DNA of 64,000 bases from an uncultured Verrucomicrobiota bacterium (GCA_937996795.1 CALKUH010000038.1:31516-95515), one strand, 5' to 3'; positions 7,623 through 45,730 are shown, counted from the first letter of the stretch. The notes: generated by a model not told the origin, from the letters alone. Translations and numbers: made by a program.

Positions 7623-10600
7623 ATGAGGATCGCTCTTCGCGCGTTGGGGGTTTTGCTGGTCGGCTTGATGGCCGTCGCCGGGGCACGGGCGGATGAGGTC
7701 CGAGTGCTGGTGATGAGCCCGGGGCCGACGAATTTTGCCTATGGGTTTCCGGGCGCGCGGATCAGCGATCACCTGCGGGAGTTGCTCACAGGCAGCGGCC
7801 AGTACAGCAATGTGCTGGTGACGTATCGCAGCGTGGCGCTCGATGCCTCGCTATCGACGAGCCTGCTGGGCGCGTATTATGTGCCGCCATTCCGCACGCA
7901 GCACCTCGCGGCGGTGCTGTCGACGAACTGGACGCACGTCGTGATGATTGACCGTCCGTTTTTCTACGCGGCCGCGCCGGAACTACATTATGTGGGCGTC
8001 AACGCGTGGGCGAAATTCATCTCGCGCGCGGGTGCGCAGCCGGTACTGATGATGCCGTGGGTGGACCGGGCGACGATGGACCAGAACTTCGTGTCGGTGA
8101 ACAACGCGCAGGTGCGCGAATTTGCGTATCGCGTGGGCGACGGCGCGCGGGACCACCTCGGGCAGCCGGTCCCCGTCGTGCCCGCGGGCGTCGCGTGGAG
8201 CACGCTGCCCGCGACCAACCGCGGCGCCCTGCCGACGCAGCCGGGCAACGGCGTGATTCTCAACACGAACGGCGAATACACCGCCGCCGCGTCGCTCTTC
8301 ACGTACCTCACGGGGGAAAACGCGAAGTCGGTGAATTACCTGCCGCCGGGCATGACGGAGACCAATCGGGACGCGATCGCGGACCACGTCGCGACGGTGC
8401 TGTCGAACGAGGCGAACGCCGTGCGCTACACGGGCGCGTTCGAGAACCCGCGCATGAAGCTGTGGGCGGGCACGACCAACCTGCACTACAGCGAGGAGGG
8501 CACGAGCACCGAGGTCGCGATCGCGGACCAGTTGCACCGAATGAGCCAGGCGGATGGCTTCCCCGTCTTCAACACAACGGGCACGTACGCAACCAACAAC
8601 GGGGTCAACATCCGCCGGTCGAACCTGGTGTTTGGCCGCTACAATTTCCTCTATCCGAACACGATCACCAACTACGACCTTGGCGTGCCGCCGACCACGA
8701 TGCTGGCGACCTTCGACCGGCAGGGTGACACGGTGAATTCCGGCGTGAGCGGCGCGTCGGGCGCTGAATCCGAACTGTACTGGCACTATACGTACAGCCT
8801 GCTCGGCGACTACACCTTCATCCCCTACCACCTGTTCTGGGTGCGGACGATGTATGACCTGGGCATTCCGATCGACAACTTCAACACGCACGCGCCGGAC
8901 TGGCAGTTCGCGGCGACGGCGTCCGCCATGTATACCCTGCGCAGGGGTGGGCGCAACGGGGTGCATCCGGCCGTCGCGGGTCGCGCGTACTGGAGCCCGC
9001 AGATCCGGACCGAACGCTTCGCGTGGCGCACGATGCAGATGGCGTGGGAGACGATGATGGAGATGGCGACGCTCGCGCCGGCGCCGACCCACCGCGTGCG
9101 CGCGCTCGGGTTTGACCGGATCATCGACGCGGAGGCCTTTCACGAGGCGCCGGGTCCGATAACGCTCGTGACCAATCCGCTGGAGACCCTGCACCTCGCG
9201 CAACTGCAGGAGGGCGACTGGACGGGATACGACATTGATTTCGGAACGCCCGCGCCGCACGCGCTCGCGTTTGTCGGGCGCCTCGCGTGCAACACGGCGG
9301 GCGCGCAGATCGAGATCCGCCACCAGAGCCCAACCGGCACGTTGTTTGGCACGGTAACGGTGCCGTCGACCGGCGGACCGAACACGTTCTGGGAAACACG
9401 CCACCTGCTGACGTCCAGCGGGCTGACCGGCACGCAACTCGTGGTGCTTGTGTATCGCGTGCCCGGCGGTACACAGCTGGCGCTGGATCACTTCCGGCTC
9501 ACCCTGCTCGCGCGCGATGGCGACAGCGCGTGGCGCAACGTGGGCGGCGGCCCGTGGTCCACCTCGACGAATTGGTCGCTCGGCACGCCCGACGGCGCCG
9601 GGGTGACCGCGACATTCTCGATCGACCTCCCCGGCGCCAATGTCGCGACCATCCCGGTCAGTTACAGCGGGACGAGTACGCTGGGTCGGCTCGTGCTCGG
9701 ACACGGCATCGGCACCAACGGCGGCGCAAGCATCACGGGAACGGACAGCGATCTCCTGCGCATGCACAACGGCGGCAGTCCGGCGGAAATCCGCAAGCCC
9801 GCCGGCGGCGCGGATGTCCTCGACGTGCCGATTTTCAACACCAACGACCTGCGGATCAACAACCGCTCGACGGCGACCCTCTCGCTGCTGCGCACTATTT
9901 CCGGCGGCGGCGCCCTCTACCCGTTCGGGCGCGTCCGTTTCGAGGGCGCGAACTACGACGTCGGCCGCGTCGGACACAACAACGGGTTCGGCACGGAGGA
10001 CCTCGCGTTTCCAAACACGGTCGTGGGCTGGTTCGCCACCGGCACGATCCGGAACCTCTCGATGCCGATCTACACGACGTGGAACCTCCACGGCGCGATC
10101 ACAAACCTCGGCTGGACGGACATCGGCAACGACAACTCCGGCACGACGGCGAGCGGAACGTTCAACATCAACGGCGGCGTGCTCCGCCACGCGACCACCA
10201 ATTTCTTCCGCCTCGGCAACAGCATCAACTGCACGACGGTCATCAACCTCAACGGCGGCCTGATTGACACGATGGTGGGCTTCACACAGCGCGCCGCGAC
10301 GCTGACGATCAACCTCGACGGGGGGACGCTCCGCTACTCGGGCTCAACGGACCTGACGAACTGGATCGCGAAACCCGCGGGCCGTCCCCTCACGGTTCGC
10401 GTAGGCGGCAACGGTGCGCGCTTCGACATTGTCACCGGGCGCACGGTCGCACTCCCTCACGCGCTCTCAAGCACGAACGCAGACGCCGGAATTGAGAAGC
10501 TGGGAGGCGGCGCCTTTGTACTCGCCGCGTCGAACAGTTTTCGGGGCCCGGTTGCCGTGCAAGCGGGTACGCTGCGGGTGACAAGCCCCTTCGGCCTCGG

Positions 10601-11393
10601 CGCCGCCCGCCAGTTCCTCGTACCCGCGGGCAGCGTGCTCGACATTCCCGGCCCGCAGACGCTGGTCCTCGACGGGACAAACGCCAGCTGGACCGGCGGG
10701 GGCGCGCTGCAAGGCGGCCTCACGCTGACGAACGCACGGATGGCGCTGGTCGCGGGCCAGCCGCTGATCGTCACGGGCAACGTCCTGCTCGGGCCAAGCG
10801 GCACGCGCATCCTGGACATTTCGGGCACGCTGCCGGGCCCCGGCGCCTATCCCCTGCTGCACGCCGCATCGATCACCGGGACCTTCAACAGCGTGCTCGG
10901 CATGCCCTCGGCGCCCACGGGCTTCACCGCGCAGCTCGTGTATGAAACGACGCAGGTACTGATCCGCGTTGCCGGTCCCGGCGAGGCATGGCTGTCCACC
11001 AACGCCGCGCCGGGCGCGAAATTCGGCGAGGACCCGGACACCAACGGCTGGACCTATCTGGAGGAATACGCCTTCGGAATCCCGCCCGGCGGAACGGGCA
11101 AGGATCAGCGCGCGCCCGGGCTCTCCCCCAGCAACACCCTGCACCTGGCGTTCACCTACAACACGACCGCCATCGACGCGAGCATCGACGTGCTCGCGGG
11201 CACGAACCTGTTCCAGTGGACGCCGATCTTCAGCAAGCCCGCGGGGTCCGCCACGAACTGGACACCGCTTGTGCCCGGCGCCGTGCTGCAGCAGGGTCCG
11301 ATCACGGGCACCTACCAGACCGTGACCGTGCGCGGCCCCGGCACGAATGAGGTCAACAGCTTCATCATGCTGGACGTCCGGCGGCTGGAGTAG
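7623..11393 (+). CDS. Large secreted protein (1256 aa) with a CBM6/35-like beta-sandwich, autotransporter-associated beta-strand (PATR) repeats and a conserved C-terminal module. The N-terminal ~480 aa is of unknown function.
   Basis: Signal peptide MRIALRALGVLLVGLMAVAGARA. PATR-like repeats (IEKLGGGAFVLAASNSFRGPVAVQAGTLRV…, GGGALQGGLTLTNARMALVAG…). The C-terminal tail carries W…GEDPDTNGWTYLEEYAFG. Confidence 0.6.
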   Translation: MRIALRALGVLLVGLMAVAGARADEVRVLVMSPGPTNFAYGFPGARISDHLRELLTGSGQYSNVLVTYRSVALDASLSTSLLGAYYVPPFRTQHLAAVLSTNWTHVVMIDRPFFYAAAPELHYVGVNAWAKFISRAGAQPVLMMPWVDRATMDQNFVSVNNAQVREFAYRVGDGARDHLGQPVPVVPAGVAWSTLPATNRGALPTQPGNGVILNTNGEYTAAASLFTYLTGENAKSVNYLPPGMTETNRDAIADHVATVLSNEANAVRYTGAFENPRMKLWAGTTNLHYSEEGTSTEVAIADQLHRMSQADGFPVFNTTGTYATNNGVNIRRSNLVFGRYNFLYPNTITNYDLGVPPTTMLATFDRQGDTVNSGVSGASGAESELYWHYTYSLLGDYTFIPYHLFWVRTMYDLGIPIDNFNTHAPDWQFAATASAMYTLRRGGRNGVHPAVAGRAYWSPQIRTERFAWRTMQMAWETMMEMATLAPAPTHRVRALGFDRIIDAEAFHEAPGPITLVTNPLETLHLAQLQEGDWTGYDIDFGTPAPHALAFVGRLACNTAGAQIEIRHQSPTGTLFGTVTVPSTGGPNTFWETRHLLTSSGLTGTQLVVLVYRVPGGTQLALDHFRLTLLARDGDSAWRNVGGGPWSTSTNWSLGTPDGAGVTATFSIDLPGANVATIPVSYSGTSTLGRLVLGHGIGTNGGASITGTDSDLLRMHNGGSPAEIRKPAGGADVLDVPIFNTNDLRINNRSTATLSLLRTISGGGALYPFGRVRFEGANYDVGRVGHNNGFGTEDLAFPNTVVGWFATGTIRNLSMPIYTTWNLHGAITNLGWTDIGNDNSGTTASGTFNINGGVLRHATTNFFRLGNSINCTTVINLNGGLIDTMVGFTQRAATLTINLDGGTLRYSGSTDLTNWIAKPAGRPLTVRVGGNGARFDIVTGRTVALPHALSSTNADAGIEKLGGGAFVLAASNSFRGPVAVQAGTLRVTSPFGLGAARQFLVPAGSVLDIPGPQTLVLDGTNASWTGGGALQGGLTLTNARMALVAGQPLIVTGNVLLGPSGTRILDISGTLPGPGAYPLLHAASITGTFNSVLGMPSAPTGFTAQLVYETTQVLIRVAGPGEAWLSTNAAPGAKFGEDPDTNGWTYLEEYAFGIPPGGTGKDQRAPGLSPSNTLHLAFTYNTTAIDASIDVLAGTNLFQWTPIFSKPAGSATNWTPLVPGAVLQQGPITGTYQTVTVRGPGTNEVNSFIMLDVRRLE

Positions 11394-12815: not shown

Positions 12816-13676
12816 TTACCGCCGGAATTTGTCGAATCGTTCAATCCATTCCTCCACCGACAGTCCGTAGTGCGATGACAACGCAGAAGGCAGGGCTTCG
12901 CCGCGCGCGAGCGCGAGCAGGAACGGCGCGAATTTTTCCGGCGGCTGCTCCAGTTGCAGGTAGCCCACGAGGTGTTTCGCCGTCTGGTAGAAAATGGAAA
13001 CCTGGCGGGGATCCTCCGGATACGCCGTCGCCGCAAGCAGCGCGGGCAGCGGATACGTCGAGCGCAAGCCCGCGAACTGCGCGCGTTTGCTGCGCTTGGT
13101 CCCCTTGAAGGCCGCGTAGGCGAAGGCGCCGTACCACTCGGCCAGCCCCTCGTTGAGCCAGAGCGGAATCTCGCCCTCGACCAGCCGGTTCAACACAAGG
13201 TGCGTCATCTCGTGGCCGAGGACCTCCGCGCTGGAGCCGATGTCCGCCGCCTGCTGCAAATACATCACGGGGCCGTGGACCATCGAGAACGACCACTCGA
13301 GGCCGCCGCGGTGGTACTGCGTGAGAAACAAGGTCCAGTCCTTCGCATTCCGGAAAATGAAGATATGCGAGCGGCCTTCGACGCGGTCGGCCAGCCCGCC
13401 GAGATCGTCGGCGATGAAGCGGTGGAAGAACTCGGCCATGCGCGCGACCTTCGCGGCAAAAATGCCGTTCTCGAAATGCAGAACGAAATGCTCCGTCTGC
13501 GCGTGGCGCCACTTGAATTCCGGCGCATCGATCAGCGCGCGGGCAACACCGGCCAGCTGCCGCGAGTCCACATCATCGCGCTCGATCACGCGCCAGTCCT
13601 CGCGCTCCACGGGCGGCGCGGCGACGGAGGCCCAGCAGGAGACCAGCAGCAGCACCGTGGTGAGAAGGCCTTTCAT
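12816..13676 (-). CDS. Secreted putative zinc metallopeptidase (HExxH…E gluzincin-like), 286 aa.
   Basis: Signal peptide MKGLLTTVLLLVSCWASVAA. HEMTH motif followed by a downstream NEGLAEW glutamate. Confidence 0.5.
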   Translation of the reverse strand: MKGLLTTVLLLVSCWASVAAPPVEREDWRVIERDDVDSRQLAGVARALIDAPEFKWRHAQTEHFVLHFENGIFAAKVARMAEFFHRFIADDLGGLADRVEGRSHIFIFRNAKDWTLFLTQYHRGGLEWSFSMVHGPVMYLQQAADIGSSAEVLGHEMTHLVLNRLVEGEIPLWLNEGLAEWYGAFAYAAFKGTKRSKRAQFAGLRSTYPLPALLAATAYPEDPRQVSIFYQTAKHLVGYLQLEQPPEKFAPFLLALARGEALPSALSSHYGLSVEEWIERFDKFRR

Positions 13677-28766: not shown

Positions 28767-29711
28767 TCAGCGGAAATGCTCATAGCCCTTGATCGACAGC
28801 CGCTGGTCCGGCGCGCCGGGCATGCGCAGGCGGATGAGGCCGGGGTGCGGCGTGATCGCGCCGATCGGCGTCACCGGCGTCGTGAATGCGCGGCGCCAGG
28901 CCCGGAGGAACGCGGGCACGGCGCCGCGGGGCACGGTGAACAGCAGTTCGAAATCCTCGCCATCGCGCAGCGCGTGTTCAACCGCCGTGAGGCCGTCGTT
29001 CATCGCGCGCGCGGCGGGCGTGACGGGGATGCGATGCGGGTCGAGGTCCGCGCCGACACCGGACGCCGTCGCGAGGTGGCGCAGGTCCGTGGCGAGCCCG
29101 TCGCTGAGGTCGATCATCGCGCGCGCCCAGCGCCCGGCGCGCAGCCACGCGCCCTCGGCCAGGCGCGGCGTAAACCGCAGGTGCCGCCCGCGCAGGCTGC
29201 CGCCCAAGGCGCCGGTCACCATCAGGACGTCGCCGGGCCGCGCGCCGCTGCGCAGGATCGCGCGTCCGCGGGGGACGTCGCCAATGCCGAAGAGGTGCAG
29301 CGCGAGTTGATCCGCCCGCACCGTCTCGCCGCCGACGATGGATACCCCGTGCGGTTCGGCGAGGCGGCGCATGCCGCGGTAGAGCGCGCGCAGTCGCGCA
29401 ACCGGCGTATGCGGCGGAGCGGCGAGGCTGACGAGCAGGTGGCGCGGCGCGGCGCCCATCGCGGCGAAGTCGCTGAACACGCGGCCCAGCGCCTTGTGGC
29501 CCACCCGCGCGGGCGGAGCGTCCGGCAGGAAGTGAACGCCCTCGACCACGGCGTCGCACTTGAGCACCATGTCCGTCGAGCGCGAGCCGCGCACGACCGC
29601 CGCGTCGTCGCCCGGCCCCACTAAGACGTCCCGCGCCGCCACGCCGCCCGGCGCGAGCATGCGAATCAGCGCCCGTTCCCCGAGTTCCGCCAGCGTGGAG
29701 TTCGCGTTCAT
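28767..29711 (-). CDS. thiL: Thiamine-monophosphate kinase.
   Basis: AIR-synthase-related fold, GPGDDAAVV…[11 protein letters not shown]. Confidence 0.8.
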
Positions 29712-30613
29712 GAAATACTCAGCAGGATCGCCGTGGTGATCGCATTAAAAATCGCGTGCATCGCGACCGGCACGGTCAGCGACCCGGTGTACACATACGC
29801 CGCGCCCAGCGCCATCGACAGGCCGAACAGCGTGACGAAGGACGGCAGGTGGCCGTGGATGATGGCGAACAGGAACGACGTCACGAGCAGGCCCGCCCAC
29901 ACGCCATAGCGGCGGGCCAGCACGGGCAGCAGCAGGCCGCGAAAAATGATCTCCTCGAACAGCGGCGCCAGCCCCACGGCGAGCGCAAGGAAGTAGGCGC
30001 GCATCCACCGGTTCTTTTCATCGGCGATGGCGAAGGCGACTTCCTGCAGCGAGGGCTGGTGGCCGACGAGTTGCAGGAACAGGTGGAACAGCACCGTCGC
30101 CAGCAGCAGCGCGGGCAGGACGCCCAGGAGCGCGACAAGTCCCTTCACCACGTCGAGCGGGGCCGCGAACAGGTCCATGCCGAACGCATCGCGCCACGCG
30201 CGGCGCCGACGCCACAGCAGGAGCGCGACCGCGACAAGTCCGAGCCCGTGGAATACGAGGCTCTGCAACAGGACCAGGCGCGACGCCGCCTCCATCCCCC
30301 ATCCCTCCGTCAGGCGGAGCCAGGCGCCGCGCGCAAACGCCGCGGCCAGGAAACCGGACAGCAGCACGATGAGGAGAATCCGCACATCGTGGCCGTCCCA
30401 CGGCCAGCCGAGCAGGCGGTTCACCGCATGGCGCATCGGCGGCGGGCGGCGCATCCAGCGCACGACGAACACCACGTTGATGATGAGCCCGAGCAGGACG
30501 AGCACGCCGTAGACGGACCCGATCAGCGCGGCGCGCTGGAGCAAATCGTATTCAAGGGAGGAGAATCCGCCGATCTCGGCCTGGGCGAGCGTCAGCATGG
30601 CGGACGACGTCAC
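29708..30613 (-). CDS. CPBP-family intramembrane metalloprotease (CAAX protease/Abi).
   Basis: EEIIFRGLL…FAIIHG motifs, 7-8 TM segments. Confidence 0.75.
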
Positions 30614-37502: not shown

Positions 37503-40500
37503 ATGGGCATGACGATCCCGATTGGTCAACAATTTTACGCCAAACCACCTTCTCCCTGTTCCAGCTTCTCCCGCCGGGTGCTGGCAGGGCTTTTTTTGTG
37601 GTCCCTGGCAACCCTCACCTCGTTCGGTGGGGTGGTGATCTCCGGCGGCGGGCTGGCGCTCGTGGAGGAGGGTGGAGGTTTTGCGGAAGGAAATATGGCG
37701 ACCAACGGAACCGCGTTCGCGAAGGATACGATCGGCGCGGGACCGCACACCATCGCCGGCGTGAACGACGGTTTGTACGGAAACAGCAGCAGTTGGATTG
37801 GCGGCACCGCGAACAGTTTCGTGGGCATCCGTTTCGGCGCGATCCCGATGCCGTTGTACAAAGTGGCGTTCGGACGCGACAACCTCAGCAACTTTACCGA
37901 TCGCGTCTTCGGCCTCTACACCCTTCAGTACACCACGGTCGCCGATCCGGACGAGTCGACGCCGGACGCGGCATGGAACACCATCGGCACGCTGGATTAC
38001 CAATCGGCCGGCGGGACCAACTTCGCCAACCCGATCCTGCGGCACGCCTTCACCTTCCGCGAGGTGCTGGCCACCGGCTTCCGCATCAAGACCGACAGCG
38101 CAACCGACCACATCGCCATCGATGAAATCGAACTCTACCGCCCCGGCATCACCGTGTCCGGAGGCGTGCGGCTGGCGGCCGAAGGCGGTTCGTTCCATTC
38201 CAACAACCTGGCCGCCAGCGGTGTGGCGTTCGCCAAGGATGAGCTTGGCTCGCCGCCCCATTCGATCGGCGCCGTGAACGACGGCGCGTACGGCAACACC
38301 AACAGCTGGATCGCGGGCAGCACGAATTCATGGATCGGCATCAGCCTCGGCACCTCGCCGGTGACCGTGGCCCGGATCGCCTTCGGCCGCGACAACACCG
38401 GCATCTTCGCCGACCGCGTGTTCGCCACCTACACCCTGCAAGTCACAACGGTCGCCGATCCGGATGAAACCACCCCCGACGCCGCGTGGACCACCATCGG
38501 TGCGATGCAGTACACCCGGCCGGGCGGTATGCTGTTCAACGCTCCCGCCCTCCGCCACGAATTCGCCTTCGCCCCGGTTCCGGCCACCGGCATACGCCTG
38601 CGCATCGACGGCGCGGCCGACATCGACAACATCGTCGCCATCGACGAGCTGGAAGTCTACGGTCCGCCCCTCCTCCGCCTCGAGCATCCGCCCGGACGCA
38701 CCCACGCCATGAAAACGAAGGTGTCGGTGTGGGGCGAAGACGGTGCCGGCCAAACCACCGTCCCGACCAACACCGTCGGCGCCGTGTCGGTCGTGGCCGC
38801 GCCCGGCCGGATCGCAGTGTTGACGCCGACCCGCTCGTTCACCGGCTGGGGTTCGACCTACCCGACGCTGAACACGGACCCCGCGGGCCGCTCGGGCCTC
38901 CGGCAAATCGCGTCCGGCTGGTTCCACAACCTCCTGCTGACGAGCAACGGGAGCATCGCCGCCTGGGCGCATACCAACGCGTTCGGCGAGGGCGATGTTC
39001 CGCCCGCCTTCACGAACGGCAACGTCCAGGCGGTGGCCGCCGGGTTCCGGTATTCGGTGGCGCTGACCGGGGCGGGTAGCGTAGTCGCCTGGGGCGACAA
39101 CAGCGCCGGCCAGACCAACGTACCGCCGGGCCTGACCAACGTGCAGGCCATCGCCGCCGGGTACGCGCACGTCGTCGCGCTGGCGAACGATGGAACCGTC
39201 ACCGCCTGGGGCCTGAACGATGCGGGCCAGACCAACGTGCCGCCGGGCTTGAGGGGCGTGAAAGCCATCGCCGCCGGGGATCACCACACGCTCGCGCTCA
39301 CCACCAACGGCACCGTCGTGGCGTGGGGCGGGAACGCGCACGGGCAGTCCACCGTGCCGCCGGGCCTGTTCGGCGTGCAGGCGATTTCGGCGGGATCGCT
39401 GCACAGCGTGGCGTTGCTCGATGACGGCCGCCTGGTATTCTGGGGCACCAACGCCCTCGGACAAATGACCGTCCCGGATCGCATCAACCTCGTCCGCACG
39501 GTGTCCGCGGCAAGCCAGGTCACCGCGGCGATCTATTCCGAACACGTCCCGATGGCGTTCGGCCCCGTCCCGTCCGGAAGCGTAACCTCGAAACTCTTCA
39601 CCGTGTACAACGACGGAACCGGCCCGCTGGCCATCACGCACATCGACCTCCGCGATTTCGATGCGGAGGTGTTCGCGCTGGACACCGGCGCCACCGCCAC
39701 CGTGATTCAGCCCGGCGGCAGCACCACCCTGACCGTGACGTTTGCGCCGACGAACACGGCCGCCGTGGAAAGCACCTTGTACCTCGAGACCGATGACCCG
39801 GACCGGCCCGTGTTCGCCTTCGCCGTGAACGGGAACCAGCCGGACCCGATCCCGCCGCTCATCACCACCCCCGGCAACCTGGCCGTGCCCACCACCAACC
39901 TTTCCGGGACGGTGGTCACCTACGACGTGCTGGTCGAGGACAATGCCGATCTGGATCCGCAGGTGACCATCACGCCACCAAGCGGCAGCCTATTCCCGCT
40001 CGGCATGACAACGGTGGTGGTACGCGCGGTCGACTTTTCCGGCAATACCTCCACCGCCTCGTTCGTGGTCAATGTGACCCTGCCGACGCCGGTGCTAATC
40101 GAGACCGGCGGCAGCTTCGCGACCAACAACCTGGCGTCCGGTGCGACGGCGTTCGCCCAGGACCAGGCCTTCTTTCCCACCCACAGCATCGCGGCGGTGA
40201 ACGACGGCGTGTACGGCAACGCCAGCAGTTGGATCGGGGTCAGCCCTGCCAACTTCATCGGCATCAACCTCGGCGCCACGCCCGTCGCGGTGGAACAAAT
40301 CGCCTTTGGCCGCGACAACAACGGGAACTTCGGCGACCGCGTGCAAGGCGTCTATACCGTCCAGTTCACCACCACGCCGAATCCCGACGCGGCCACGCCG
40401 GCGTCCGCCTGGACCAGCTTCGGATCGATCGTGTACCCGGGCGCAAGCCCTTTGCCGGCACGGCGCAACCGCTACGCCTTCCAGCGGGTTGAAGCCACCG

Positions 40501-43500
40501 GCATCCGGCTCCTGACGCAAACCGATTCGCTGCCGGTGGCCATCGACGAAATCGAACTCTACGACTACAACCCCATCCCTTTCATCGTCATCGAACAACC
40601 GGCGGGCAACGCGCTGGTTTCCGGCGTTTCCACCATCAATTTCGGCACGCGCGAAGCCGGGACGTCCGGCCCGACGAACACCTACACCGTGCGCAACGCC
40701 GGCGGGGTGCTCCTGAACATCACGAACATAGCGACCATCGGTTCCAACGCGACGGACTTCATCGTGACCCCCGCAAGCGGCTGGCCGAGCCTGCCGACGA
40801 ATTCGAGCACGACCTTCCACGTCGTCTTTCAACCCTCCGGCGTCGGCCCCCGCAGCGCCACCCTCCGCGTGCAAAACAGCTCCAGCAACGAACCGGTGTT
40901 CGACATCCACCTCACCGGCATCAGCGCGGACACCACACCCCCGGTGATCAACATCCCTTCCAACCAGTTCGTGTACATCACGGAAGGCACCGGCTCGGTG
41001 GCGACCTTCACCCTGCCCAGCGCCACCGACAACTCCAGCCTCCCGCCGACGGTCTCGACCGAACCGGAGAGCGGCTCGTTCTTCCCGCTCGGCACGAACA
41101 CCGTGACCATCACCGCCACCGACAGCGTGAACAACAGCGCAACCGGGACGTTCGCCATCATCGTCCGGCCGCGTGCACGGATCGCGGTGGAGGCCCCGGC
41201 GGGATCGGCGCTCACCGGCGCACCGCCGTCCTACGCCTTTGGCTCCCTGCTCGTGGGCGCGACCACGTCGCAGACCTTCGCCCTGGTCAACGACGGACTG
41301 GCCGCGCTCGCGATCTCCGGCGCCAGCGTCATCGGCGCCCATCCCGCGGAGTTCGTGCTGGAAACCTCCGGCCTGTCGCCGTCGATCGGCATCGGCGGCA
41401 CCAGCCATTTCGCGGTGACCTTCGCACCGCTGGCCCATGGCGCACGCACCGCCACCGTGCGCCTCGTCACCGACGATCCGGTGACCCCGTTCCTGGATGT
41501 GCACCTGGCCGGCGACGGCCTGGACATCACGCCCCCCGTCATCACGCCGCCGGCCGCCTTCTCCGTGGTCGCGGGCTCGCCCACCGGCGGCGTGCGCGTG
41601 TTCTATCCGCCGATCGCGGTGACGGATGACGCGATCAGCGCCGTCGACGTGGTCGTGGATCCGGCGAACGCCAGCCTCCTGCCCCCCGGCACGAACCTCG
41701 TGACCGTCACCGCCACGGATCCCGGGAGCAACACCTCCACCGCCACGTTCGAGGTCGTGGTCGTGCCGGCCGTCTATCCGCCGGAGATCCCGGTCGGCGG
41801 ATCCGTTCCCTTCAACCTGGCGCTGGGAAGAACGGCGTTCGCCAAGGATTTCCTCGGTGCTCCGCACCTCATCCCGACGCTGAACGATGGCGTGTACGGG
41901 AACGCGAACGGCTGGATCGGCAACTCGCCGAACAGTTTCGTCGGCATCAACCTCGGCGCGACACCGGTGGAGGTCAACCGGGTCGCCTTCGGCCGCGACC
42001 ACAAGGGTTCGTTCATCGATCGCACGATCGGCACCTACACCCTGCAATACACCACGACCGCCAACCCCGACGCCGCCACCCTCGACTGGCACACCATCGG
42101 CGCGGTCACCTACACCGCCGATTTCACCAACCGCGCCCGCCGCAACGTCTATGCCTTCCCACCGGTGATGGCGACCGGTATTCGCCTCCTCACCGCGGCC
42201 GGCGAATTCCCGCTCGGCATCGACGAACTGGAAATCCACGGCCTGCCCGGCGCGATGTCGCTGGAACAACCGGCCGGGGCCGCGCTGACCTCCGGCATAT
42301 CCGTCGTCACTTTTGATCCGCGCGACCTCGCCACCGCCAGCGCGCCGAAAACCTTCACCCTCCGCAACCCCGGCCCCGGCGCGATGCGCATCACCCGCGT
42401 GGCGGTCACCAACGATCAGGTCGGCGAGTTCATCCTCGCTCCGACCAACCTGTTCACCACCCTGGCCGCCGGGGCCACCACGACCTTCCAGGTGGTCTTC
42501 CAACCCGTGGCGCTCGGGCCCCGGCAAACCACCCTGCGCGTGACCGCCGACAACACCCAACTCGCGGTCATGGAGGTGGCCCTCGCCGGAACCGGCGTCG
42601 ATGTATCCGGCCCGGTCATCGTGCCCCCCGCCAACATCATCCGGTATATAGCAGACACCGAAACCAACGTCGTGGTGACCTACCCGCCCGCCGTGGCCAC
42701 CGACAATTCGGGGCTCGCTCCCGTCGTGACCTATTCGCATCCCAGCGGCAGCGCGTTCCCGGTGGGCAGCAACGTCGTCACCATCACCGCGGTGGACGCC
42801 TCCAGCAACACCTCGACCGCCACCTTTGTCGTGGACGTCCGGTATTCGCCGACGCTCACGCCGGAGATCCCGGAAGGTTCCCCGTTCGTGCTGGACAACA
42901 CCGTCCAGGTGTGGGGCGCACTGCCCGGCGGGGTGGCGCCGCCCGCCAACCTGTCGAACGCGACCGCGGTATCGATCGGCAACCAGCACGGCTTGATCCT
43001 GCTGGGCGATGGAACAGTCACGGCGTGGGGCAACGACGAATTCGGCCAGAGCACGGTTCCCGGCGGCTTGTCCAACGTCGTCGCTATATCGGCAGGGTCC
43101 TGGCACTCGCTGGCGCTGAAGGCGGACGGCACGGTCGCCGGCTGGGGCACCCACGATACATCCCTGCCAGTGGCCCCACCGATCACGATTCCGCCCGGCC
43201 TGACCGGTGTCGTGCAGGTCAGCGGCGGCTTTTATATGTCCGCCGCGCGTTTCACCGACGGGACGATTACCGTCTGGGGCGAAAACGACGCCGGGCAACT
43301 GGATGTCCCGCCCGGGTTGACCAACGTTGTGGACATCAGTTGCGCGAGCGAACACTGCCTGGCCCTGCTCGCGAACGGCACCGTCGTCGCCTGGGGTGAT
43401 AACAGCGAAGGCAAGGCCACCGTTCCCTCCGGCTTGTCCAACGCGGTTCAGGTCAGTGCGGGCGCAAGTTTTTCCGTGGCGCTGCGCTCCGACGGATCCG

Positions 43501-45176
43501 CACTGAGCTGGGGGCAAAACAGCGGGAATGCATTCGGCGCCCTGACGGTCGCGACGAACCTCGTGGAGGTCCGGGCCGGCGCCGCACACATCAGCGCCCG
43601 TCGCGCCGATGGCACCATCGTGGTCTACGGGCCCGCCGAATCGCCTCAGGTGACCGGCGCGGCGGCCGTTGAGGATGCCCTCTCGCTTGGCAGTTGGATG
43701 TTGGACTCTGTGGCCGCGGTGGTGAAGGATTGGCCGTCCCTTGACTTCGGCGCGGTCCCGGTGGGCGAACGCGTCACCAACACCGTGGTGGTGCGCAACA
43801 CCGGCCTGGGTTCGTTGAGCCTGACCAACCTCGTGCTGGTCGGCGCGGACGCCGGCCAGTTCCAGGTGGACGCTTCCGCCGGCGCGATGCCCGTCGCCAG
43901 CGGCGATGCGACTATGCTGTCGATCATCTTCACACCCGCCGGACCGGCCGGCGCGCGGGCGGCGACCCTGCGACTGTTCAGCAACGACCAGCAGGTCCCT
44001 CTCTGGAAACTGCGGCTCAGCGCCCAGGCCACGGACGACGAGCCGCCGGTGTTCACCTCCACGAACGCGATCATTGCCTACGCCAGCGAAACCGGCGGCG
44101 TGCGGGTGCTGATCCGGCCACCGGCCACCGATAACAGCGGGGTTCCGCCCTCGGTGATCGCAACGCCCTTGAGCGGAAGCTTGTTCCCGCTCGGCACCAA
44201 CCCTGTCACGGTGGTCGCCACCGACGAGTCCGGCAACGCCGCCACCTCCTCGCTCCAGGTGATCGTGCGGTTTACCGACACGCTGCCGGCGGTCGGGCCG
44301 TCCGATCCGGTGCCGCCCAACCTCGCGCGCAACCAACCGGCCTTTGCTCTGAACGTCACCTTTTTCCTGCCGCACAGCATTCCCGCGCTCAACGACGGGA
44401 TGTATGGCAACGACAGCAGTTGGATCGGGCTGACACCGAACAGTTTCGCCGGCATCAACCTCGGCGCCACGCCGGTCTTGCTCGACCGCATCGCCTTTGG
44501 CCGCGACAATACCGGCATCCAACTCACCCGCGCCCAGGGAACCTACACGGTGCAGGTCACGACGGTGCCGAACCCCGACACGAGCACGCCCGATAGCGCG
44601 TGGCAGACCATCGGGGTCATCGAGAATCCCGGACAGGTGGATCATCCGTCCCGCCGCAATCTCATCGCGTTTGCTCCGGTCCACGCCACCGGGGTTCGCT
44701 TGAACGTCGCGAGCGCGAGCGCAGAAATTGCCATCGATGAAATCGAACTGTACGGTCCGCCGGCGCCGTTCGCGGCTTGGCGGGCGGCCCACTTCACACC
44801 GGGCGAACAGCTCGACGGCGCGATCAGCGGCCCGCTCGCCGATCCCGGCCAATCCGGCGTGGCGAATCTCTACCGCTACGCCACCGGGCTTGACCGGGAG
44901 GACGATCCGAAACCCGCGTTGCCCCGGCTACAGGGTCTCCAGTTCATCTACCGGCGCCTGCTCGATCCGGAGTCCGGCGTCGACTATTTCGTCGAGATCT
45001 CCACGAACCTGCCGAACGCCGCCGCCTGGCGCGAAATTGAAAGCGCCGACGGCATCACCGAGGCCAGTGCGACTCCCAATCCTGACGGCATCACCGAAGA
45101 CGTCCGCATGAGCATCCCGCCCGGAACGGTCAATCCGATCCTGAATCTTCGATTGAAGGTGTCGCAGGAGGAGTAG
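37503..45176 (+). CDS. Giant (2557 aa) secreted/surface modular protein. It contains 5 discoidin/galactose-binding-like modules, 5 ASH-like (choice-of-anchor-D) domains, 5 HYR domains and 2 RCC1 beta-propellers.
   Basis: The ~160-aa module NDG.YGN.SSWIG…GI.LG..PV…IAFGRDN.G…YT.Q.TT…PD..TPD.AW.TIG…ATG.RL…IAIDEIELY occurs 5 times. RCC1 repeats (GQTNVPPGL…VAWG) occur in two blocks (~38.7-39.5 kb and ~42.9-43.65 kb). HYR and ASH domains alternate. Confidence 0.75.
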   Translation: MGMTIPIGQQFYAKPPSPCSSFSRRVLAGLFLWSLATLTSFGGVVISGGGLALVEEGGGFAEGNMATNGTAFAKDTIGAGPHTIAGVNDGLYGNSSSWIGGTANSFVGIRFGAIPMPLYKVAFGRDNLSNFTDRVFGLYTLQYTTVADPDESTPDAAWNTIGTLDYQSAGGTNFANPILRHAFTFREVLATGFRIKTDSATDHIAIDEIELYRPGITVSGGVRLAAEGGSFHSNNLAASGVAFAKDELGSPPHSIGAVNDGAYGNTNSWIAGSTNSWIGISLGTSPVTVARIAFGRDNTGIFADRVFATYTLQVTTVADPDETTPDAAWTTIGAMQYTRPGGMLFNAPALRHEFAFAPVPATGIRLRIDGAADIDNIVAIDELEVYGPPLLRLEHPPGRTHAMKTKVSVWGEDGAGQTTVPTNTVGAVSVVAAPGRIAVLTPTRSFTGWGSTYPTLNTDPAGRSGLRQIASGWFHNLLLTSNGSIAAWAHTNAFGEGDVPPAFTNGNVQAVAAGFRYSVALTGAGSVVAWGDNSAGQTNVPPGLTNVQAIAAGYAHVVALANDGTVTAWGLNDAGQTNVPPGLRGVKAIAAGDHHTLALTTNGTVVAWGGNAHGQSTVPPGLFGVQAISAGSLHSVALLDDGRLVFWGTNALGQMTVPDRINLVRTVSAASQVTAAIYSEHVPMAFGPVPSGSVTSKLFTVYNDGTGPLAITHIDLRDFDAEVFALDTGATATVIQPGGSTTLTVTFAPTNTAAVESTLYLETDDPDRPVFAFAVNGNQPDPIPPLITTPGNLAVPTTNLSGTVVTYDVLVEDNADLDPQVTITPPSGSLFPLGMTTVVVRAVDFSGNTSTASFVVNVTLPTPVLIETGGSFATNNLASGATAFAQDQAFFPTHSIAAVNDGVYGNASSWIGVSPANFIGINLGATPVAVEQIAFGRDNNGNFGDRVQGVYTVQFTTTPNPDAATPASAWTSFGSIVYPGASPLPARRNRYAFQRVEATGIRLLTQTDSLPVAIDEIELYDYNPIPFIVIEQPAGNALVSGVSTINFGTREAGTSGPTNTYTVRNAGGVLLNITNIATIGSNATDFIVTPASGWPSLPTNSSTTFHVVFQPSGVGPRSATLRVQNSSSNEPVFDIHLTGISADTTPPVINIPSNQFVYITEGTGSVATFTLPSATDNSSLPPTVSTEPESGSFFPLGTNTVTITATDSVNNSATGTFAIIVRPRARIAVEAPAGSALTGAPPSYAFGSLLVGATTSQTFALVNDGLAALAISGASVIGAHPAEFVLETSGLSPSIGIGGTSHFAVTFAPLAHGARTATVRLVTDDPVTPFLDVHLAGDGLDITPPVITPPAAFSVVAGSPTGGVRVFYPPIAVTDDAISAVDVVVDPANASLLPPGTNLVTVTATDPGSNTSTATFEVVVVPAVYPPEIPVGGSVPFNLALGRTAFAKDFLGAPHLIPTLNDGVYGNANGWIGNSPNSFVGINLGATPVEVNRVAFGRDHKGSFIDRTIGTYTLQYTTTANPDAATLDWHTIGAVTYTADFTNRARRNVYAFPPVMATGIRLLTAAGEFPLGIDELEIHGLPGAMSLEQPAGAALTSGISVVTFDPRDLATASAPKTFTLRNPGPGAMRITRVAVTNDQVGEFILAPTNLFTTLAAGATTTFQVVFQPVALGPRQTTLRVTADNTQLAVMEVALAGTGVDVSGPVIVPPANIIRYIADTETNVVVTYPPAVATDNSGLAPVVTYSHPSGSAFPVGSNVVTITAVDASSNTSTATFVVDVRYSPTLTPEIPEGSPFVLDNTVQVWGALPGGVAPPANLSNATAVSIGNQHGLILLGDGTVTAWGNDEFGQSTVPGGLSNVVAISAGSWHSLALKADGTVAGWGTHDTSLPVAPPITIPPGLTGVVQVSGGFYMSAARFTDGTITVWGENDAGQLDVPPGLTNVVDISCASEHCLALLANGTVVAWGDNSEGKATVPSGLSNAVQVSAGASFSVALRSDGSALSWGQNSGNAFGALTVATNLVEVRAGAAHISARRADGTIVVYGPAESPQVTGAAAVEDALSLGSWMLDSVAAVVKDWPSLDFGAVPVGERVTNTVVVRNTGLGSLSLTNLVLVGADAGQFQVDASAGAMPVASGDATMLSIIFTPAGPAGARAATLRLFSNDQQVPLWKLRLSAQATDDEPPVFTSTNAIIAYASETGGVRVLIRPPATDNSGVPPSVIATPLSGSLFPLGTNPVTVVATDESGNAATSSLQVIVRFTDTLPAVGPSDPVPPNLARNQPAFALNVTFFLPHSIPALNDGMYGNDSSWIGLTPNSFAGINLGATPVLLDRIAFGRDNTGIQLTRAQGTYTVQVTTVPNPDTSTPDSAWQTIGVIENPGQVDHPSRRNLIAFAPVHATGVRLNVASASAEIAIDEIELYGPPAPFAAWRAAHFTPGEQLDGAISGPLADPGQSGVANLYRYATGLDREDDPKPALPRLQGLQFIYRRLLDPESGVDYFVEISTNLPNAAAWREIESADGITEASATPNPDGITEDVRMSIPPGTVNPILNLRLKVSQEE

Positions 45177-45343
45177 CTCGCTGGAGTCCGATTTGGCCCC
45201 GTTGACCGACGCGGGAGGGAGACCTCAATCCCCGCGTGTCCACCAAACCGGAGCAATCCCACACAAACCGTAGCGGCGCACTTTCCCCTCCCCCCGGAGG
45301 AGCGGGTTTGCTAGGGTGCCGCCCATTCAAGGAGGAGTGTGTC

Positions 45344-45730
45344 ATGGAAGAATATGAAGCGGGTATGAGTGGTGGGGCGGCGGCGGGCATCGGGGCCGGC
45401 ATGATGATCGTCTGGCTGGCGGTGATCGTGCTGATGATCGCGTCGATGTGGAAGATCTTCACCAAGGCCGGGCAGCCGGGCTGGGCGAGCATCATTCCGA
45501 TCTACAACCTCATCGTGCTGCTCCAGGTCGCGGGCAAGCCGTTGTGGTACATCGTGCTGTTCTTCATCCCGATCGCGAACCTCGTGGCGTTGATCCTGAT
45601 CAACGTGGGTCTCGCGAAGAGCTTCGGCAAGGGCGGCGGATTCGCGGCGGGCCTGATCCTGCTGCCGATCATCTTCCTGCCGATCCTCGGCTTCGGCAGC
45701 GCGCAGTACACCAAGCCGGTCACGGCCTGA
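45344..45730 (+). CDS. DUF5684-family small membrane protein (128 aa).
   Basis: Good RBS (aaggagg) 8 nt upstream. 3-4 TM helices. IPIYNLIVLLQVAGKPLWY motif. Confidence 0.55.
   Translation: MEEYEAGMSGGAAAGIGAGMMIVWLAVIVLMIASMWKIFTKAGQPGWASIIPIYNLIVLLQVAGKPLWYIVLFFIPIANLVALILINVGLAKSFGKGGGFAAGLILLPIIFLPILGFGSAQYTKPVTA

Follow-up and report, generated by a model that had tools for sequence, protein, structure and literature searches.

Two large proteins encoded in a 64,000-nucleotide stretch of DNA from an uncultured Verrucomicrobiota bacterium (GCA_937996795.1 CALKUH010000038.1:31516-95515; the whole stretch is referred to here as the window) have homologous endings, each a copy of an autonomous extracellular domain of approximately 140 residues. 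We call these two copies tail A and tail B after the proteins that carry them. The domain is undescribed within the libraries that we queried, and thousands of exported proteins of the Verrucomicrobia group end in this one domain that lacks a Pfam or NCBIfam model. Verrucomicrobiota and Kiritimatiellia are major degraders of polysaccharides in soil, sea, and gut, and they export very large enzymes and adhesins. To our knowledge, the means by which these members of the Planctomycetes-Verrucomicrobia-Chlamydiae (PVC) group retain such proteins at the surface, or pass them through the outer membrane, are poorly understood beyond PEP-CTERM/exosortase. As discussed below, we tentatively favor a role for the domain in non-covalent retention or docking at the cell surface.

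Tails A and B are homologous

Gene A (7623-11393, + strand) encodes a protein of 1256 amino acids and gene B (37503-45176, + strand) encodes a protein of 2557 amino acids. Tail A occupies positions 10977-11390 and tail B occupies positions 44766-45173, both on the + strand. A first-pass annotation of the window, made from the sequence alone, had quoted the two tail sequences and proposed that they represent a module shared at the extreme C-termini of otherwise unrelated proteins. Both open reading frames (ORFs) and both tail sequences are as that annotation described them, and outside of the tails the two proteins are indeed unrelated (best BLASTP E 0.62).

When the tails are compared with one another by BLASTP, they align with 11/39 identities around a shared motif and an E value of 0.052, which is not significant when taken alone. 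The regular expression D[PA][DGN]..G...[LIVMF]..[YFW][ALVF].[GN], which describes this motif, has only two matches in the six-frame translation of the 64 kb window, and these lie 104 residues (tail A) and 95 residues (tail B) ahead of stop codons.

The evidence that carries the homology comes from profile comparisons. We built a hidden Markov model (HMM) from 99 complete domains related to tail B, taken from its best matches, with tail A left out. In the six-frame translation of the window, this HMM matches tail B with 131.7 bits (HMM positions 5-143), and the only other match is to the ORF that contains tail A, with an E value of 2.2e-4; the next ORF has an E value of 0.56. Isolated tail A scores 22.6 bits, compared to 7.4 bits for the best of 2000 shuffled sequences. 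The tail of a 48%-identical orthologue of protein A (P0155) scores 36.6 bits over HMM positions 34-142, a match that runs from the loop through the final strand. Likewise, an hhalign comparison of the tail-A pair with the B-family alignment returns a probability of 97.3% and an E value of 2.5e-11 over 109 columns that reach the last residue. The shared C-terminal module is therefore borne out by an HMM that had not seen tail A, by the shuffled controls, and by a profile-profile comparison that is significant. Within the family, tail B is a typical member, identified by the HMM, the family search, and structure prediction, and tail A is a divergent one, identified by the HMM, hhalign, and structure prediction.

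A resemblance due to chance or composition, with no shared module behind it, would agree with the pairwise E value of only 0.052 and with the failure of tail A to find relatives by itself in a word-indexed search, but it is refuted by the HMM match, the shuffle control, the bridge provided by the P0155 orthologue, the hhalign result, and the concordant topologies of the two predicted structures.

A protein identical to protein A is present in public metagenomes (P0153). In two comparisons of orthologues, the tails are 84% and 49% identical and the corresponding passengers are 76% and 48% identical; these values are about equal and do not discriminate between tail and passenger. A further relative (P0154) is 83% identical to protein A and 650 amino acids longer, and its last ~190 amino acids are identical to those of protein A. 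Orthologues that are 37% identical to protein A (found among P0156-P0158) end in a third tail subtype, DADHDGMTNWQEYIAGTDP…FYRIRV, which hhalign also links to the family (94.6%, E 6.7e-8). The presence of this third subtype on orthologues of protein A shows that the tail is swapped, or diverges, within a single orthologous group.

The family is large and has no Pfam or NCBIfam model

An exhaustive search of 1.84 billion cluster representatives was carried out with a profile made from tail B and two close relatives (profile A1). It retrieved 2901 representatives at E <= 1e-3, 223 of them at E <= 1e-10, and the family thus comprises at least 2901 clusters at 50% identity. The word-indexed homologue search returned three matches for tail B and none for tail A.

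At E <= 1, the two tails and 35 diverse family members are all without a match in Pfam-A or NCBIfam. The family profile finds nothing under E 0.39 among the sequences of the PDB, and Foldseek comparisons of both predicted structures with the PDB return only generic immunoglobulin (Ig) V/C-set domains (E >= 6e-3, template-modeling scores of 0.3-0.46). Full-text literature searches, including searches with motif strings, did not find a description of the domain. In a cluster look-up, the tail is unnamed and its carriers are annotated only by their passengers (CotH, autotransporter-associated beta-strand).

Predicted anatomy of the domain

The AlphaFold2 models of tail B (predicted local distance difference test score, pLDDT, 94.8; predicted template-modeling score, pTM, 0.87) and tail A (pLDDT 90.9, pTM 0.85) have the same order of elements: a helix that bears a Trp residue, a loop, an exit helix, and a sandwich of 6-7 strands. 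In these models, a helical cap with an EF-hand-like loop is predicted to pack onto an Ig-like beta-sandwich in which the RFxRLxV strand comes last. The consensus begins with F..W....FT..E..DP.ISGP.ADPDGDG..NLL(E/R)YA.G.... and continues with LP....L.L.Y.R....D..Y.VE.S.DL..W....DG.T.TV......RF.RL.V, after which 2-4 residues follow (four in both tail A and tail B). An alignment of 35 rows that includes both tails (alignment A2) has five invariant columns: W11, A31, G37, A45, and W94. The residues that make up the family signature are the Trp of the first helix, G6 of the loop, YA.G, DL..W, and the terminal R-F-x-R-L-x-V.

In tail A, the invariant Trp of the first helix (column W11 of A2) is encoded at 10989-10991 (+ strand). 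The terminal beta-strand of tail A, SFIMLDV, is encoded at 11358-11378 (+ strand) and corresponds to the family RFxRLxV in the hhalign alignment and to strand 133-140 of the AlphaFold2 model; that of tail B, LNLRLKV, is encoded at 45141-45161 (+ strand) and is followed by SQEE and the stop codon. Apart from its SFIMLDV ending, tail A deviates from the family in that it is without the 11-residue F..E..DP.ISGP segment and has Y at the near-invariant position N9 of the loop, with L10 kept. In the motif order given in the first-pass annotation, the 'W-x-F' element is loose (W-x4-F in tail B), and tail A has YL where tail B has NL.

The loop, D-P-D-G-D-G-x-x-N-L-L-E, has the spacing of the Ca2+ site of an EF-hand, a dockerin, or TSP3. 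The loop of tail A (DPDTNGWTYLEE, 11031-11066, + strand) is canonical, with D1, D3, N5, G6, and E12. The loop of tail B (DPGQSGVANLYR, 44841-44876, + strand) is degenerate: D3 is replaced by G, D5 by S, and E12 by R, with G6 and N9 kept. G6 is conserved in 96 and N9 in 98 of the 99 close members that make up the HMM. The DxDxDG...E/D pattern is present in tail A and in 22/99 of these members, and it is absent from tail B and from 71/99. Whenever E stands at position 12, Asp occupies each of positions 1, 3, and 5 (22/22 members); position 12 is R or K in 71 members, only four of which keep both D3 and D5 (Fisher p 1e-17, a value that is not corrected for phylogeny). By position 12, the loops fall into two classes. 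The E-type loop, to which tail A belongs, is probably Ca2+-dependent. In the basic type, to which tail B belongs, the acidic ligands have decayed and the basic residue at position 12 probably stands in for the metal ion. The Ca2+-type and Arg/Lys-type loops form a natural pair for studying the replacement of a metal site.

In alignment A2, the N-terminal 55 residues, which form the helices and the loop, show much stronger conservation than the sandwich. At many of the genome loci described below, the tblastn match spans residues 3-61 only, yet the ORFs at these loci run through a full-length domain to the stop codon. That the cap is conserved above the sandwich, including at these loci, suggests that the domain has one shared partner.

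Position, copy number, and carriers

We recorded the position of the domain in 152 retrieved proteins, which contain 114 complete domains, and at 55 genome loci, which contain 54 complete copies. The domain ends within 5 residues of the protein end in 104 of the 114 complete domains and within 10 residues of the stop codon in 53 of the 54 complete genomic copies. Approximately 20 proteins (~13%) have 2-4 copies in tandem, likewise arrayed at the C-terminus. The domain is internal in ~3% of the carriers. In four proteins (P0118, P0121, P0143, and P0148), it is internal or directly follows the signal peptide, with real domains downstream of it: the order is CARDB, domain, DUF6242 in P0118; signal peptide, domain, Big_1, fn3 in P0143; and lectin_C, domain, cadherin in P0148. 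The suggestion that the tails mark a family is confirmed by the 2901 clusters; the further idea that its members are always C-terminal holds for the great majority of copies, but not for the internal copies found in a few proteins, and the domain can also occur in tandem. The first-pass annotation had named internal matches as grounds for refuting its proposal, and by that standard these copies count partly against it.

Signal peptides were likewise expected on all carriers. A crude hydrophobicity test detects one on 62 of the 98 carriers that start with Met, most failures look like truncated gene calls, and most carriers with intact N-termini do have a signal peptide. The passengers include GH16 with CBM4_9, GHL10 with Golvesin_C, GHL15, Ig/He_PIG, lectin/cadherin, CotH/LTD, PATR, and RCC1/HYR. 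One retrieved protein (P0003), a metagenomic protein of 183 amino acids, has a Gfo/Idh/MocA-type N-terminus (PF01408) fused to a tail that starts in the middle of the domain; it looks like a chimera of assembly or gene calling rather than a cytoplasmic carrier.

Lineage

Alignment A2 was too diverse for the scan for genome loci, so a narrower alignment (A3) was used, and the resulting taxonomic picture is biased toward the B subfamily. Nearly all of the 55 loci carry Verrucomicrobiota or PVC labels, among them Opitutia, Verrucomicrobiia, Akkermansiaceae, Luteolibacter, Chthoniobacterales, Roseibacillus persicicus KCTC 12988, Kiritimatiellia, and Lentisphaerae. Other labels are found only on an unclassified 'Bacterium' isolate and on a single Bifidobacterium metagenome-assembled genome (MAG). 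Several MAGs hold 2-3 loci each. A scan of viral contigs found no relatives of the domain. As far as sampled, the domain is specific to the Verrucomicrobiota/PVC lineage. The Bifidobacterium locus (L025, CAZKMR010000004.1) is a contig of 119 kb, binned as 'uncultured Bifidobacterium sp.', whose 1472-amino acid carrier is close to two Verrucomicrobiota carriers (L032 and L042); its label is probably wrong and the contig mis-binned.

Function of the domain

By analogy with known extracellular modules, the domain resembles a hybrid in which one Ca2+ loop of the dockerin/TSP3 type would cap an Ig-like sandwich, the whole being deployed like the C-terminal domains (CTDs) of the type IX secretion system (T9SS) or like SLH domains. 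The function that we tentatively favor, and that is quite possibly the correct one, is that of a non-covalent surface-retention or docking module. The carrier would first be exported by Sec, and the domain would then serve as a common module for retention or docking at the surface. Its conserved helical/loop face would bind one shared partner in the PVC envelope, be it a glycan, an outer-membrane protein, or a scaffold, and passengers as different as glycoside hydrolases, CotH-type proteins, PATR proteins, and adhesin-like RCC1/HYR giants would be kept on the cell or close to it. Avidity would increase where copies are in tandem.

We favor a non-covalent module because the domain forms tandem arrays and occasionally takes other positions, as binding modules do; because it is the loop/helix cap, rather than the terminus, that presents the conserved face; and because there is neither a transmembrane helix nor a cleavage-type motif. 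Such a pattern of tandem and internal copies is typical of SLH, LysM, carbohydrate-binding modules (CBMs), and dockerins, and not of cleaved signals. SLH, LysM, and CWB2 domains are, like this domain, terminal, frequently present in tandem, attached to unrelated passengers, and linked by lineage to envelope chemistry. Unlike them, the domain has a stronger C-terminal bias, and no sequence or fold relationship to them was detected. A surface-retention role also draws support from the C-terminal position, the signal peptides of the carriers, the multiple copies in single MAGs, the lineage, the diversity of passengers, the covariation within the loop, the two confident models with matching topology, and the presence of choice-of-anchor D in protein B. 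The choice-of-anchor D model (NF012200) matches protein B in five stretches with 192.2 bits, compared to a cut-off of 45, and it owes its name to the different surface anchors in which its members end in different lineages.

Several considerations weigh against surface retention. The near-obligate position at the extreme C-terminus (>90%) is stricter than is the case for most binding modules and would suit an export signal just as well. The proposed function rests on position, distribution, and analogy, and both Ca2+ binding and the substitution of Arg for Ca are read from sequence only. When ORFs within 4 kb of the 55 loci were clustered, no recurrent neighbor emerged, the sole large cluster being made up of antisense ORFs of the carrier genes themselves. 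Finally, the wider superfamily may reach beyond PVC, since the scan used only peptide patterns of the B subfamily.

The first-pass annotation had labeled the module a sorting or anchoring domain. By analogy, anchoring or targeting is a plausible role, but a cleaved sorting signal is a less likely version of it. PEP-CTERM, LPXTG, GlyGly-CTERM, and MYXO-CTERM signals share with the domain a C-terminal position, a many-to-one distribution over surface proteins, and the 'anchor slot' of choice-of-anchor proteins. However, signals of these types are ~25-35 residues long, combine a motif with a hydrophobic helix and a basic tail, and have a dedicated sortase-like enzyme that cuts them, whereas the present domain is a soluble unit of 140 residues that has polar ends (…LRLKVSQEE and …MLDVRRLE), lacks a transmembrane helix, and has no processing enzyme encoded next to it. 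The analogy to PEP-CTERM and LPXTG that had been drawn for the tails fails on these points, as they have no hydrophobic helix or basic tail and form a folded domain of ~138 residues rather than a short signal. Membership in these families was rejected: the last 30 residues of both tails are polar beta-strand, and neither PF07589 nor TIGR02595 matches. A processing or transport gene had been expected to co-occur with the tails, and no candidate for such machinery adjoins the 55 loci or is present in the window.

The main rival to surface retention, which we consider unlikely, is that the domain is a secretion signal of the CTD type, read by a putative export or attachment machinery in the PVC outer membrane and maybe later cleaved or modified. 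In Bacteroidota, many unrelated Sec-exported proteins, often very large ones, likewise end in a folded beta-sandwich, the T9SS CTD (PF18962/TIGR04183), with which the tails had been compared at the outset; it too is restricted by lineage and present in many copies per genome at dispersed loci. In keeping with such a signal, the domain lies at the extreme C-terminus in 91-98% of cases, always on exported and often giant proteins with unrelated passengers; it has many copies per lineage, dispersed in the genome; and it has an Ig-like sandwich with a conserved final strand, as T9SS CTDs do. No complete copy (0/114) has an extension of ~25-35 residues such as PEP-CTERM would require. A secretion signal would also agree with the notion of an 'anchor slot' in choice-of-anchor and PATR proteins, in that PATR proteins bear an autotransporter barrel elsewhere and this tail here.

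A secretion signal accords less well with the arrays of 2-4 copies and with the genuine internal and N-terminal copies that have domains downstream, and here the domain differs from T9SS CTDs in occurring in tandem (~13% of carriers) and internally (the four proteins named above). The domain also has ~55 additional N-terminal residues, and this helical/EF-loop cap, which is absent from T9SS CTDs, is its best-conserved part; nor is there evidence here that the domain is cleaved. Given that no PF18962 or TIGR04183 match was obtained at E <= 1 for either tail or the 35 members, and given the tandem copies, we rejected membership in the T9SS CTD family. No candidate machinery is found in the window or adjoining the 55 loci, and no T9SS components of the PorU/PorV/SprA type were seen in the window. 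Protein B does match the PorU model with 16 bits (E 0.0015; cut-off 420 bits), but in its HYR region and not in the tail. We know of no T9SS in Verrucomicrobiota. A more specific proposal, which is rather unlikely, is that an undiscovered PVC pathway for outer-membrane export or surface attachment recognizes the domain as its tag, with the helical/EF-loop face being read by the machinery. In function, this would correspond to the T9SS CTD or to sortase-type signals, and it would explain how Verrucomicrobia, Kiritimatiellia, and Lentisphaerae display hundreds of giant enzymes and adhesins at their surfaces.

It is also unlikely that the domain is only an Ig-like/CBM-like end-cap that stabilizes the end of a long extracellular protein or binds substrate polysaccharide, with no part in sorting or anchoring. 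The Ig-like sandwich fold would suit this role, as would the frequent occurrence on glycoside hydrolases and the existence of internal copies; the sandwich also resembles a CBM22-containing xylanase weakly, at a level that is not significant (E 0.5). One would not, however, expect to find a substrate binder on passengers that have as little in common as CotH, RCC1/HYR, PATR, lectin/cadherin, and glycoside hydrolase domains, and an end-cap leaves both the strong C-terminal bias and the conservation of the cap unexplained. Should the domain prove to be a structural end-cap and nothing more, the benefit would be confined to annotating a new domain family.

Less probable still is a dockerin-like assembly module, which would use its Ca2+ loop and helix to attach to a cohesin-like scaffold protein and thereby assemble enzymes and adhesins into surface complexes. 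In type I dockerins (PF00404) and bacterial TSP3 (PF18884), a helix and G-x-D-P come after a DxDxDGxx(N/D)xxE loop, as in the E-type members of the family; they are extracellular, usually C-terminal on glycoside hydrolases, and, as the domain may be judging from its sequence, Ca2+-binding. The canonical DxDxDG...E loop and following helix of tail A and 22/99 close members agree with this proposal, as do the mostly C-terminal position with occasional internal and tandem copies and the presence of the domain on glycoside hydrolases with CBMs. The domain, however, has a single loop where dockerins are defined by a duplicated pair and TSP3 by a repeat array, and it is fused to an Ig-like sandwich of ~85 residues that dockerins lack. 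The acidic ligands are lost, with E12 changed to R or K, in most close family members (71/99), tail B included, and no cohesin-like partner has been identified. Among the 35 members, there is no Pfam match to Dockerin_1, EF-hand, or TSP3 at E <= 1. We rejected membership in the type I dockerins, given the lack of a Pfam match and the single loop-helix per domain, and in TSP3_bac (PF18884), to which the likeness of DxDxDGxxNxxEYxxGxDP is by eye only.

With its confident fold model and clear sequence signature, the domain can serve as a practical marker of the surface proteins that the Verrucomicrobia group exports, and it offers a concrete handle toward finding the partner or machinery with which it works.

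Proteins A and B and other genes of the window

Protein A begins with a classical signal peptide, MRIALRALGVLLVGLMAVAGARA/DE. In the Pfam/NCBIfam scan, it has a CBM6 domain (amino acids 521-627) and a PATR/autotransporter-associated beta-strand region, and these are followed by the C-terminal tail domain. The N-terminus of protein B is signal-peptide-like, and the protein comprises RCC1 propellers, HYR, five choice-of-anchor D/ASH-type Ig domains, and the C-terminal tail domain.

Protein B also contains five copies of an unannotated repeat of ~165 amino acids, at approximately amino acids 45-215, 215-390, 855-1025, 1415-1580, and 2250-2420, the last of which abuts the tail domain. The consensus of the repeat contains …AFAKD…PH.I..VNDG.YGN..SWIG…F.GI.LG..P…IAFGRDN.G.F.DR..G.YT.Q.TT..NPD..TP…W..IG…TG.RL…IAIDEIELY. 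The repeat has no Pfam or NCBIfam match at E <= 1; by eye only, it is discoidin-like.

A small DUF5684 protein (E 3.2e-25; 45236-45730, + strand) begins 60 nucleotides past gene B on the same strand. It is not among recurrent neighbors in the clustering of the 55 loci, in which no search was aimed at DUF5684. An intramembrane protease of the CPBP/Rce1-like type (PF02517, E 4.6e-20) is encoded at 29708-30613 (- strand), 7 kb from gene B. The CPBP/Rce1-like superfamily includes myxosortase. Nothing ties this protease to the tails. A Peptidase_MA_2-like protein is encoded at 12816-13676 (- strand), just downstream of the major facilitator superfamily gene that adjoins gene A; its match of 29.5 bits is under the Pfam cut-off of 32.4, and no connection to the tails was seen. 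The window as a whole has a G+C content of 66.8% and carries housekeeping genes, including uvrC, murJ, ffh, prfA, and thrS.

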